Assembly: GCA_030591285.1 (NCBI GenBank)
Contig: JAUVBH010000001.1
Location: 1 to 28,441 of the forward strand
Reading direction: 5' to 3'
DNA length: 28,441 bases
Source: Thermoplasmatota archaeon
GTDB lineage: Archaea > Thermoplasmatota > Penumbrarchaeia > Penumbrarchaeales > Penumbrarchaeaceae
In this document: positions 26,057 to 28,441 of the stretch, one piece after another
How positions within the stretch are numbered: the stretch's first letter is position 1
How the letters are laid out: each line of letters begins with the position of its first letter
Notes under the pieces: model-generated
Told to the model about the DNA's origin: nothing
Seen by the model: the letters and a program-made list of their open reading frames with translations, nothing else
Database searches by the model: none
Made by a program: the position numbers and the translations under genes

Positions 26057-26686
26057 ATGGGATTGTTCAAAAGAAAGCAACATGACAGGATCGAGTTTGA
26101 GAATATAGGTGTCAAGGAGAGCCTTACCGAGATGAAGGATCTCTCTGAACAGATAATCGACCTATCATATTCTGCAATACTTTTTGATTCAAGCGATATT
26201 GCTAGACAGGTAATGGAGCTGGAGGAGAGACTTGACAAACTCCTCTACAATGTGAGGATCGGAGTTCTATTGGCTGCCCGCAACCGGGAGGATGCTGAAC
26301 AACTATCGGGGATCCTTCAGGTAGCATCAGCAGCAGAAGCCATGGGTGACGCTTCACTTCAATTGATGAGGATCTTTGACGAAGATGTTGAGTTCAGACC
26401 ATTCGCTCCATTTTTCCTGCGGGATGGAGATGAGAAGATCTGGGCCATCAGGATCTATGAAGGTTCCGATGTTATCAATCGGATGATATCAGAACTGGGT
26501 ATCGAATCAGAGACCGGTGCCAGGATAATTGCGATAAAGAGACGGACCAGATGGCTCTATGACATTGAGCCTGAGAGAAGAATAAAGGAAGGCGACATTT
26601 TGATAGTGAGAGGGGTCGAAGATGGACTCCAGGAGCTGGACGCTTACGCAAAAGGTGAGGTGAAATGGGGGAAATACAAGAGGTAG
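26057..26686 (+). CDS. PhoU-like plus TrkA-C (RCK-C) domain protein, paralog 1
   Basis: 'EMKDLSEQIIDLSYSAILF' helical N-terminus; 'ELGIESETGARIIAIKR...WLY' and 'EGDILIVRG' in the TrkA-C domain; TTTATAAA at 25999 and RBS GGAGA. Confidence 0.85.
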   Translation: MGLFKRKQHDRIEFENIGVKESLTEMKDLSEQIIDLSYSAILFDSSDIARQVMELEERLDKLLYNVRIGVLLAARNREDAEQLSGILQVASAAEAMGDASLQLMRIFDEDVEFRPFAPFFLRDGDEKIWAIRIYEGSDVINRMISELGIESETGARIIAIKRRTRWLYDIEPERRIKEGDILIVRGVEDGLQELDAYAKGEVKWGKYKR

Positions 26687-27267
26687 AAGATCCCTTGAAG
26701 AGGATGGAGGAGATATTCCTCGAAATGAAGGACACCTCCGAGTTGATGGTGGACCTCGCTTATTCCTCATTGCTTTACAATAACAAGGAGATCGCTTCCG
26801 AAGTGGAGCATCTCGGGGATATTGTCGATGAACTCTCTGGTGACCTCCAGCATATCGCCATCGAGGAGATCGCTGAAAGGACTCCAGATGCAACTTTGAT
26901 GATCCTTCAGATGGCAAGGTTCGTGGATTCGATTGCAGACGCAGCCATGTCAATTGTCGATGTCGTGTTGAGGGATATCGAACCCCACCCCATTTTGATT
27001 CAGGTGATAAAGGAATCCGATGTCGGGATCTACAAGATGGAGGTTCGCTCAAAGTCGACCCTTGTAGATAAACCACTGGGAACCTTGAGGCTTGCAACAG
27101 AGACCGGTATGTGGGTATTTGCCATCAAAAGAAAGGTACGATGGATCTACGGTCCCGAGAAAGGAGAGGTGTTGAAGAAAGGTGATATCATCTTCGTTAG
27201 GGGCCCGGAAGATGGTGCTAAAAAACTCCGTGCCGTTGCCAAAGCAAAGAGAATGTCCCTTGAATGA
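26665..27267 (+). CDS. PhoU-like plus TrkA-C domain protein, paralog 2
   Basis: 'EMKDTSELMVDLAYSSLLY', 'LRLATETGMWVFAIKR...WIY' and 'KGDIIFVRG'; overlaps paralog 1 by 22 nt; RBS GGTGA at 26654-26658. Confidence 0.85.
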   Translation: MGEIQEVEDPLKRMEEIFLEMKDTSELMVDLAYSSLLYNNKEIASEVEHLGDIVDELSGDLQHIAIEEIAERTPDATLMILQMARFVDSIADAAMSIVDVVLRDIEPHPILIQVIKESDVGIYKMEVRSKSTLVDKPLGTLRLATETGMWVFAIKRKVRWIYGPEKGEVLKKGDIIFVRGPEDGAKKLRAVAKAKRMSLE

Positions 27268-27310: not shown

Positions 27311-27383
27311 GCGGGTGTGATGTAGTCTGGTATCATTCTAGCTTGCCAAGCTAGTAACTCGGGTTCAAATCCCGGCACCCGCA
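27311..27383 (+). tRNA. tRNA-Gly (anticodon GCC), no intron, CCA not encoded
   Basis: Acceptor stem GCGGGTG/CACCCGC plus discriminator A; anticodon arm CTAGC-TTGCCAA-GCTAG; T arm TCGGG-TTCAAAT-CCCGG; TATA TTTAAAAA at 27272. Confidence 0.97.
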
Positions 27384-27712
27384 CTCATTTTCTTTCGTCA
27401 ATTAGAAGTTGATACGAAAATGAGTGCTCGAAAATGATTACACACGATAAAAATGAATTGCAGGGTGCAATATCATTTTTATCTGGACATTTGAGCTTTG
27501 CTTGTCGTCAATTATTGGGCAGCTCAAATGTTCCGGCACCCGTCTTAAGATTTTTGTCAAGTAAGATAACTTCTAACAGATCTGGATCTGGATGTTTAAG
27601 ACATAAAAAGAATCCAAATTTAACATCCAGGTCTGAAAAATCTGCGATTTTTCAATGACCTTTGAATTTGGCTTGCCGTCAATGTTTTTCAAATTCAAAG
27701 GTCCCGGCACCC
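27381..27712. repeat. Hairpin array with two degenerate tRNA-Gly 3'-end copies
   Basis: Inverted repeats at 27381-92/27416-27, 27446-62/27466-83, 27487-97/27521-31, 27589-97/27622-30, 27634-42/27646-54 and 27657-70/27690-703. CCGGCACCC occurs at 27372, 27533 and 27704; CGTCAAT at 27396, 27506 and 27677. Confidence 0.85.
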
Positions 27713-27784
27713 ATCGTTATAGCTAATCAAGTTTTATGGTCAGAGAACAGTAATTGGAAATAATCTTCAGGGGTATAGGGGTGC

Positions 27785-28441
27785 ATGGGTGGAAAGGGAG
27801 AGAAGATAGTTGCCCTGGTCACTGGTGGATACAAGAACCTTGGATTGTACATTACAAAAGGACTGATGGAAGCGGGATACCGGGTTGTCACCACATACAG
27901 GAGCCGTGGCCGTGAAGCTGAAGCAGTTTCTAAGGAATTCGGGTTCGATATCTACGAAGCAGACGTCTCCAACAAAGGAGATGTAATGGAGCTATTTGCC
28001 TGGATCGAATCAAATATTGGAACTGTTGCAGTCGTTGTAAACAACGTATCATCTTTTCCAACAGGGCCCCTGAAGTCACTATCAATTGAAGAGTTCGAGG
28101 GAGCTTTCAAAAGTTCTGTATTCGCTTCCAATCTGGTGATGAATAGAGCAATTCCAGGTATGCTTGAGAAAGGAGCAGGTAGAGTTGTGAATATTGGAAT
28201 GGCAGGAACCAACCGGATCAAGGGATACATCGACGTCGCCGCTCATGCGGCTGCCAAAACCGCTTTGACCGTACTTACCAGATCATGGGCCAGAGAACTT
28301 CGAAATGACAAGATATCTGTCAACATGGTCAGCCCTGGGATCATTGATTACAGTTGGAGGGATAACATCTGGAGGGACAAGATGAAGAAGATCTTACCAT
28401 CTGGTGAATTGACCCAGCCCACTGAAGTGGCATCTGCGGTA
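27785..28441 (+). CDS. SDR-family oxidoreductase, 3'-truncated by the window edge
   Basis: Not in the ORF track because there is no stop. Hand translation: MGGKGEKIVALVTGGYKNLG...VVNNVS...GRVVNIG...AAHAAAK...NMVSPG. Rossmann TGxxxxxG motif; the frame is open to the window end. Confidence 0.9.
   Translation, partial: MGGKGEKIVALVTGGYKNLGLYITKGLMEAGYRVVTTYRSRGREAEAVSKEFGFDIYEADVSNKGDVMELFAWIESNIGTVAVVVNNVSSFPTGPLKSLSIEEFEGAFKSSVFASNLVMNRAIPGMLEKGAGRVVNIGMAGTNRIKGYIDVAAHAAAKTALTVLTRSWARELRNDKISVNMVSPGIIDYSWRDNIWRDKMKKILPSGELTQPTEVASAV

Follow-up and report, generated by a model that had tools for sequence, protein, structure and literature searches.

What occupies the 400 nt between a tRNA gene and its downstream neighbour in the genome of a sediment Thermoplasmatota archaeon? 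The DNA that we analysed, hereafter the window, is the 28,441-nt stretch at positions 1 to 28,441 of contig JAUVBH010000001.1 (assembly GCA_030591285.1). It holds one tRNA gene only, tRNA-Gly(GCC) at 27311-27384 on the plus strand (ARAGORN; Rfam RF00005, 62.4 bits), which has no encoded CCA, its sequence reading GCAC then TCA. The next gene, encoding a short-chain dehydrogenase (SDR), starts at 27785. The original prediction had described two modules in this gap that were said to keep the spacing of the tRNA 3' half but not its fold. We found that the region holds a non-coding cassette, palindromic at the DNA level, in two copies. The gap forms a chain of five hairpins (H0, Ha, H1, Hb and H1'), which, folded as DNA, gave z = -2.5 to -7.6 against shuffled sequences. 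To describe the cassette we used a covariance model, R1, which has 153 positions and 34 pairs and was built without the flanking repeats. The features of the locus are as follows.

27370-27384, plus strand: repeat copy 1, tRNA positions 60-74, TCCCGGCACCCGCAC, the template for the downstream repeats.
27381-27532, plus strand: cassette A, an intact short form H0-Ha-H1 (R1 151.4 bits, E = 5e-32, full length 1-153).
27381-27427, plus strand: hairpin H0, a 12-bp perfect stem whose 5' arm runs from tRNA G71, its first bases being G71-A73; the loop has TCGTCAATTA.
27446-27483, plus strand: hairpin Ha, an 11-bp A/T-rich stem; z = -7.6, 10 of 10 pairs covary.
27486-27532, plus strand: hairpin H1 of cassette A, which is module 1 of the original prediction; stem arms 27487-27497 and 27521-27531, 11 bp.
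27531-27544, plus strand: repeat copy 2, a decayed tRNA 3' end, TTCCGGCACCCGTC.
27545-27701, plus strand: cassette B, a long form without Ha; its 5' part is a decayed H0 remnant (27545-27584).
27585-27633, plus strand: hairpin Hb, found in the long form only; arms of 15 nt, 87% complementary, z = -2.5.
27634-27654, plus strand: small hairpin Hc, TGAAAAATC / GATTTTTCA.
27657-27703, plus strand: hairpin H1 of cassette B (H1'), which is module 2 of the original prediction; arms 27657-27670 and 27690-27703, a 14-bp perfect stem.
27702-27715, plus strand: repeat copy 3, TCCCGGCACCCATC, followed by native flank up to the SDR gene.

The H0 of cassette A folded as DNA at -11.7 kcal/mol (z = -6.0), and 12 of its 12 pairs covary among 87 distinct copies. 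In H1 of the same cassette (z = -4.9, 12 of 12 pairs covarying) the loop reads GCTTGTC then GTCAATTA and the 3' arm contains CTCAAATG, while H1' carries GCTTGCC then GTCAAT in its loop (z = -6.1) and differs from module 1 by three compensatory changes. The H1 and H0 loops of the window share the decamer TCGTCAATTA. Cassette B is 86% identical over 27580-27705 to an intact long-form copy elsewhere in the window's own assembly (G000:C197:8714-8839), and its stretch 27545-27584 was likened to the H0 5' arm and loop by inspection. Hb was also found in C197, L008, L012 and L018.

We examined which parts of the two modules derive from the tRNA. The arrangement that had been noted was exact: GCTTGCC or GCTTGTC, a 16-nt spacer, TTCAAA or CTCAAA, 2 nt present in the modules only, and TYCCGGCACCC. 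The statement that the fold is not kept had missed that each module is itself a perfect hairpin of 11-14 bp. All three boxes had been taken as tRNA-like and expected to track the neighbouring tRNA; the acceptor box does so, whereas the anticodon box does not, and neither the anticodon box nor, most likely, the T-loop box is tRNA-derived. The "anticodon box" lies in the H1 loop next to GTCAAT, and the "T-loop box" is the H1 3' arm. At the anticodon-box columns the family consensus is G(A/T)TTATC then GTCAAT regardless of the tRNA, and in 68 cassettes this 7-mer had 3.31/7 matches to its own tRNA versus 2.99/7 to other tRNAs. Because the box does not track the tRNA, the 6-7/7 matches in the window are chance within family variation. 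The H1 3' arm is usually TCCAAAGG, TCCAGATG, TTCCAAGG or similar, a family feature that recalls the T-loop, which itself barely varies among tRNAs. The equal 16-nt spacing is due to the fixed geometry of the cassette. The tRNA thus contributed the acceptor/T-stem box alone, what remains being a conserved hairpin that belongs to the cassette itself, and the reading of the modules as tRNA mimics is mostly wrong. Pairing of a GGGTG in the Ha loop with the repeat was also considered and rejected, as it occurs in the window and a few relatives and is not general.

The acceptor box that follows H1 corresponds to positions 60 to 74 or 76 of the neighbouring tRNA. In every case read, this end repeat starts at T60, the last T-loop base, spans the 3' strands of the T-stem and the acceptor stem, and ends at C74, or at A76 where CCA is encoded. 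Its sequence is that of the neighbouring tRNA's own 3' end at Gly-GCC, Gly-TCC, Gly-CCC, Leu-CAG, Leu-GAG, Leu-TAA, Leu-TAG, Ser-GCT, Ser-TGA, Ala-TGC, Ala-GGC, Ala-CGC, Glu-TTC, Glu-CTC and Trp. In one genome (G019), two near-identical cassettes sit at tRNA-Gly(GCC) and tRNA-Gly(CCC), and both of their flanking repeats read CACCC or CATCC accordingly. The copies in the window are decayed (11-14 nt, against 15-17 nt in relatives), and both of its distal repeats are cut short at the end (..CACCCGTC and ..CACCCATC). Within 342 nt of the window TYCCGGCACCC is present three times, much more than chance would give, and the 1.9-Mb assembly has it at one other place, in a coding region. The tRNA end is also mirrored inside the cassette: its last 4-6 nt pair, in H0, with an inverted copy of themselves. 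The H0 3' arm follows the tRNA end: in the window it is TGAGTGC against GCACTCA in the gene, with tRNA-Ser, whose discriminator is G, it is TGGCGC, and with Trp it is GTGG; a change of the tRNA-Ser discriminator from A73 to G73 is matched by T to C in this arm.

The region downstream of the tRNA recurs many times per genome, as shown by a DNA search of 40 relatives, and behind their tRNA-Gly genes the unit stands singly or in tandem. The short form is 153 nt long (H0-Ha-H1), and the long form adds Hb and Hc. The layout is tRNA 3' end, H0, a linker ending in ACACG, Ha, CTGG, H1 and the tRNA 3'-end copy; in relatives the H0 stem consists of GCACCA and 6 further nt set against their complement, and the H1 loop reads TTGG..TCGTCAAT..GGAC. 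R1 matched every one of the family's 24 genomes, among them that of the window, with 4-24 matches per genome. Beyond the family it matched one of two genomes of a sister family and, weakly, the single genome of a third, and it gave no match in the 10 genomes of the six remaining families of the class. In genome G011 (97% complete, 50 contigs), all 22 R1 matches lie downstream of tRNA genes on the same strand and occupy 12 of about 44 tRNA genes. At the other loci and metagenome contigs fetched, the cassette was likewise always downstream and on the same strand wherever a tRNA gene was called, with Gly, Leu, Ser, Ala, Glu and Trp as the tRNA types concerned. The original prediction would have been undermined by modules away from tRNA genes; among the cassette copies examined there was none. 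A scan of GTDB genomes with the H0 pattern returned 33 Thermoplasmatota contigs, including Thermoplasmatales archaeon ex4484_6, and about 9 bacterial chance matches, and a scan of metagenomes returned 31 contigs. The two metagenomes that best matched the window DNA are from cold seeps. Literature searches found no description of archaeal cassettes of this kind, and the 153-base three-hairpin cassette of this sediment Thermoplasmatota family is apparently undescribed.

Further observations concern the cassette's own sequence and its other copies. The linker before Ha (alignment A1 columns 68-76, window 27437-27445) closes with A.ACG, which hardly varies, and in many copies a TATA-like ATTATA stands before it; judged from its sequence, this stretch could be an archaeal promoter reading into Ha-H1. 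In the window's own assembly the paralogue on C197 is a long form flanked by a different repeat, TCCCAGTGCTCCCA. More copies are at C179:3290-3560, C312:1-260, C122:92-290 and C197:8714-8953; copies in this assembly sit behind tRNA-Ala(CGC), behind the repeat TCCCAGCCGGGGCAC at a contig start and behind tRNA-Glu(CTC) (decayed), and one further set is a Trp-like array where no tRNA gene was called.

Are the hairpins selected as RNA or as DNA? RNAalifold on 12 units found compensatory changes in 26 of 37 pairs. When the 87 distinct cassettes were aligned to R1 (2911 pair cells), standard pairs made up 95.3% of the cells and double changes occurred in all 34 pairs (816 cells). The observed pairing values were reached in none of 500 shuffles, and no slid register came close. 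RNA helices normally tolerate G·U. In the cassettes, G·T made up 0.95-2.2% and A·C 2.0-2.1% of 2741-2911 pair cells, in every helix and on either strand, and many of the stem changes were transversion swaps, UA to AU and CG to GC among them. This constraint is Watson-Crick-only and symmetric between the strands, and therefore points to DNA palindromes rather than RNA, as single-strand hairpins, as cruciforms or with both strands folding.

These results bear on the proposals that the unit acts as RNA. One such account holds that a structured RNA is co-transcribed with the tRNA or made antisense to it, and that its tail or loops bind, mimic or regulate the tRNA, as with E. coli RttR. The closest analogue, the E. 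coli tyrT repeat, does yield a processed small RNA annotated rttR, a conserved TATA-like ATTATACACG was seen by inspection to precede Ha in many copies, and the end repeat is by construction complementary to the tRNA 5' acceptor and T-stem strands. However, G·T is no commoner than A·C on either strand, transversion swaps are frequent, the box complementary to the anticodon does not track the tRNA, an oligo-T tract stands directly behind the tRNA, and no Rfam family matched the cassette, even at E = 10, where the permissive mode gave noise. We regard this account as improbable. The two hypotheses of this kind raised originally, decoy acceptor strands and a minus-strand RNA loosely like a T-box, are not supported: on either strand the stems accept G·T no better than A·C, unlike RNA helices, and the anticodon-complementary box is untracked. 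A T-box also differs in that the cassette has no specifier or anticodon element covarying with the cognate tRNA (again 3.31/7 versus 2.99/7). Decoy and antisense-RNA readings are thus disfavoured because of the strand-symmetric Watson-Crick constraint, and also because of the oligo-T tract directly 3' of the tRNA.

To determine how the cassette sits in its target, we compared empty and filled loci. In genus g1, the tRNA-Gly(TCC) of G000:C176 is "empty" and runs directly into its flank. In G005, a flank of the C176 type comes after the distal repeat of a 162-nt insertion, and the difference between the two loci is the cassette plus a 15-nt duplication of T60-C74. Native tRNA genes without a cassette end in the discriminator plus CTT. 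CCA is encoded in 2 of 13 tRNA genes of the window's own assembly, both abutted by an inverted-T-arm element, and in 13 of 36 tRNA genes of G011. In G011, a motif test found that the cassette abuts 8 of the 13 CCA genes versus 4 of the 23 without CCA, and three more CCA genes were added by eye. After a distal repeat one typically finds the T-rich native flank and no CA. Since encoded CCA is found mostly where a cassette abuts and cassette-less genes end in the discriminator plus CTT, the encoded CCA seems to arrive with the inserted DNA. In the tRNA-Gly(TCC) array of G011, the distal repeats read CCGAC, as this tRNA does in other genera, and the proximal ones read CCGGC, as the present tRNA does; arrays therefore record a succession, in which the copy nearest the tRNA is the newest. 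A tree of 71 cassettes grouped them by genus, not by tRNA, with the Glu, Ser and Gly cassettes of G008 forming one clade. Such genus-wise clustering means either that cassettes moved from one tRNA locus to another once the genera had separated, or that they evolved in concert.

The original prediction had proposed remodelled attR-type scars of repeated integration, and a fuller version of that idea invokes tyrosine integrases that repeatedly inserted larger viruses or plasmids whose cargo has since been deleted. The anatomy agrees well with it. Direct repeats of tRNA 3' ends are the signature of such integration, copies are stacked, and CCA stands in the tRNA-proximal repeats with native flank after the distal ones, an asymmetry like that of attL and attR. 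In archaea an attachment (att) site at the tRNA 3' end may span no more than 14 nt, tandem integration is known, and conservative integrase recombination reproduces the CCA asymmetry (PMC8371274). What does not agree is the notion of remodelled remains: the units are complete and conserved, with the same intact 153-nt cassette between the repeats everywhere, all 34 pairs covarying and a strong structural constraint. No integrase, cargo fragment or larger parent was found, and IMG/VR gave no match. Conservative recombination would also call for an attP that fits each of some 10 tRNA ends beforehand. We therefore consider such scars very improbable; the finding is real and is more interesting than a scar.

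We favour the reading of the cassette as a non-autonomous insertion element, or as what such an element became on domestication, by which the tRNA 3' end is duplicated; we give this a probability of about 0.55. Under this proposal the cassette would enter between the tRNA 3' end and the native flank and duplicate about 15 nt of the target, so that the repeat would match whichever tRNA is hit because it is a piece of that target. New copies would be added next to the tRNA, and arrays would grow by unequal recombination and shrink by recombination between repeats. The hairpins with the shared loop word TCGTCAAT may be recognised, as single-stranded or cruciform DNA, by a putative trans-acting protein; the two TCGTCAAT words stand in direct, not inverted, orientation. 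An automatic tRNA match would follow from target duplication, or from a template switch with return at the T-loop and a second copying of the recipient's own 3' end.

Several results weigh against the insertion element. Among the 23 related family genomes, reverse transcriptase (RVT_1, PF00078) was found in 6 and is absent from G011 with its 22 cassettes; Cas1 (PF01867) was found in 5, none of them in the cassette-rich genera g1, g2 and g6; and the Y1 transposase (PF01797) was found in none, though it is present in other families of the class. None of these candidate mobilisers fits the cassette's distribution in 23 of 23 relatives. We found no autonomous parent and no larger element with H0 and H1 as its borders, and the H0 pattern, used to look for a virus or plasmid copy, had 0 matches in IMG/VR. 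Comparison of the ends by eye on alignment A1 showed no terminal inverted repeats. No de novo gain was caught, the one empty/filled pair being a likely loss: because relatives in g1, g5 and g6 are filled, the empty site of G000 is more likely a secondary precise loss than the ancestral state. The genus-wise clustering could be gene conversion and not movement. The inverted tRNA-end copy in H0, up to 7-8 nt for Ala and Glu, is not explained by simple target duplication. Finally, a terminator role for the host would suit the T-tracts that H0 and Ha have on both strands.

This last point, together with the lack of any co-occurring transposase, integrase, reverse transcriptase or Cas1, is the basis for viewing the cassette as a host module and not a selfish element, namely a hairpin-rich tRNA trailer acting as a bidirectional terminator or insulator, or in 3'-end handling, that spreads without a dedicated enzyme. 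Spread would occur by microhomology-mediated template switching that leaves at the tRNA end or T-tract and returns at the T-loop or the T-stem TCC, with tandem duplication and gene conversion afterwards. The T5-7 tracts on both strands of H0 and Ha suit this view, as does the H1 3' arm, which usually ends in TC(C)AAAGGT or TCCAGATGT, near the T-loop TTCAAAT, as return microhomology. Several genera share the isoacceptor families that are occupied, and 12 of 38 tRNA genes in G011 have an inverted copy of their 3' end of at least 6 nt within 80 nt. Yet a terminator needs no three long Watson-Crick-only hairpins, no loop word present twice and no trailing tRNA-end copy, and accidental switches would hardly give one exact junction (T60) at about 10 tRNA types. 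In archaea, termination is not known to need more than oligo-T. On balance we hold the host module to be rather unlikely and rank it second, after the insertion element.

The inverted 3'-end copies deserve a description of their own. In G011 they are exact, and many of the 12 genes that have them downstream are cassette-less; their lengths are, for example, 12 nt for Val-GAC, 10 for Ile, 8-11 for Glu and 7 for Ala. The one at Ala complements the 3' strand by Watson-Crick rules (A opposite T70) and does not reproduce the 5' strand (G3). These observations come from the G011 tRNA flanks L166-L198 and from C176, C278, C235 and C41 of the window's own genome.

Three further mechanisms were considered and set aside. 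A TnpB/omega-RNA system with the end repeat as guide was rejected by reasoning, as the intact tRNA gene at the locus would be its target. A tRNA intron at 59/60 with a bulge-helix-bulge was rejected by inspection, the two junctions not being complementary. tRNA-primed reverse transcription is attractive for the proximal repeat only, as the repeat begins just 3' of the A58 region and the DNA contains CCA; tracking of the tRNA by the distal repeat is beyond its reach, and reverse transcriptase is mostly absent.

We compared the cassette with known systems. tRNA-linked repeats have been known in E. coli since 1978, and the 178-bp RtT repeats of tyrT/tyrV (RF00391; rttR, tpr) are the closest known system. 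They too are tandem non-coding units directly behind a tRNA gene and on its strand, each ending in an exact copy of the tRNA 3' end from the last T-loop bases through CCA. In E. coli K-12, the 19-mer of tRNA-Tyr positions 58-76 occurs six times at tyrT/tyrV, three of them at 178-nt spacing behind tyrV, and it overlaps the annotated rttR small RNA and tpr. No homology, in sequence or in structure, was detected, as RF00391 gave no match at its gathering threshold or at E up to 10. The E. coli repeat is confined to one operon, whereas the archaeal family is spread over some 12 tRNA loci in a genome and some 10 tRNA types, its repeat fitted anew to each; the archaeal cassette also differs in its three Watson-Crick-only hairpins, with H0 incorporating the tRNA end. 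The RtT repeats are not known to have an agreed function or origin. The finding belongs with these known but unexplained tRNA-linked repeats.

The att duplications left by integrases (the SNJ2 14-nt att, pT26-2 and SSV families) resemble the cassette in that direct repeats taken from the 3' part of the tRNA border the insert, inserts line up in tandem, the tRNA stays whole and CCA is supplied with the proximal repeat. They differ in that the cassette is a 153-nt non-coding unit of the same kind at every locus, with no integrase or cargo, and its repeat matches many different tRNAs in one genome. With MITEs (miniature transposable elements with inverted repeats), repetitive extragenic palindromic (REP) sequences, bacterial interspersed mosaic elements (BIMEs) and IS200/IS605-derived elements, the cassette shares small size, multiple copies, lack of coding sequence, richness in hairpins and presumed mobilisation in trans, and with IS200/IS605 also asymmetric ends with subterminal hairpins. 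The 4-24 copies found in each genome and the 15-nt duplication in the single empty/filled pair would suit a MITE, and they would suit an att-site crossover too. Unlike MITE-type elements, the cassette has no terminal inverted repeats, and its target is strict (the tRNA 3' end) with a target-derived repeat of 15-17 nt; IS200/IS605 and REP with its associated tyrosine transposase (RAYT) are set apart by the Y1 HUH transposase, found in 0 of 23 related family genomes. Casposons make 14-15-bp target duplications, and some insert at the 3' ends of tRNA genes. The 15-nt duplication in the single empty/filled pair is similar; Cas1, however, is in only 5 of 23 related genomes, and the cassette lacks terminal inverted repeats and polB. 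Retroelements like short interspersed nuclear elements differ in requiring a reverse transcriptase, found in 6 of 23 related genomes and not in G011.

Other families of units are also linked to tRNA genes. A second cassette type of about 200-240 nt is in the same arrays (L010, L012, L013, L018, L112) and, in the window's own genome, at C197:8600-8710, on C9 after tRNA-Asn and on C154 after tRNA-Ser. It contains an antisense T-arm (GGGATTTGAACCC-like), its minus strand has an H1-like hairpin with the loop word TCGTCAA as in the first type, and its end repeat, at 20-22 nt, is the longer one, reaching from T-loop C56/A57 to CCA. At L021, in a genome of another family of the class (G036), two unrelated units of ~77 nt lie about 1-150 nt downstream of tRNA-Gly(GCC), each ending in GCACCCGCA(C), the last 9-10 nt of the tRNA; the anatomy is the same and the unit family another, and R1 finds nothing at this locus. 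Tentatively, and with less confidence than we place in the insertion element, we suggest that the cassettes, the second type and the other unit families may form an unrecognised class of miniature elements targeting tRNA 3' ends, widespread in archaea, with E. coli RtT as a bacterial example. They would be inserted by a mechanism belonging to no known transposase, integrase, casposase or reverse transcriptase family, through either a hairpin-recognising enzyme or an enzyme-free template switch, that copies the last 15-17 nt of the tRNA hit.

Some features of the window stand apart from these questions. The 99 nt between Ha and Hb (27480-27580), which comprise module 1, repeat 2 and the H0 remnant, are bracketed by the 7-nt direct repeat ATCTGGA and are absent from the C197 paralogue and from one metagenome contig of about 90% identity. 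Metagenome contigs from four runs cover the array of the window in fragments only. A 308-nt contig, with 7 mismatches per aligned piece, joins 27480 to 27580; it was rejected as evidence of excision, its architecture being that of the paralogous long-form C197 copy. Directly upstream of the tRNA, at 26057-27267, are two adjoining paralogous genes, each with a PhoU domain and a TrkA-C domain, which come after a CN-hydrolase gene. Cassette loci are flanked by housekeeping genes, among them those for CN-hydrolase, SDR, PhoU/TrkA-C and RNA polymerase subunits.

tRNA genes are classic landing sites for mobile DNA. Here, roughly a quarter of the tRNA genes of one genome bear stacks of one small, gene-less, strongly constrained cassette with an end repeat fitted anew to each tRNA, and the usual enzymes do not co-occur with it. 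For annotation, the arrays yield matches to tRNA fragments and calls of "encoded CCA", could be taken for prophage att sites and probably break assemblies at tRNA loci. The family offers hundreds of comparable copies with clear rules: the T60 junction, the fixed strand, the Watson-Crick-only stems, the loop word and the CCA that comes with the cassette. It thereby makes the nature and origin of the E. coli tRNA-linked repeats testable.

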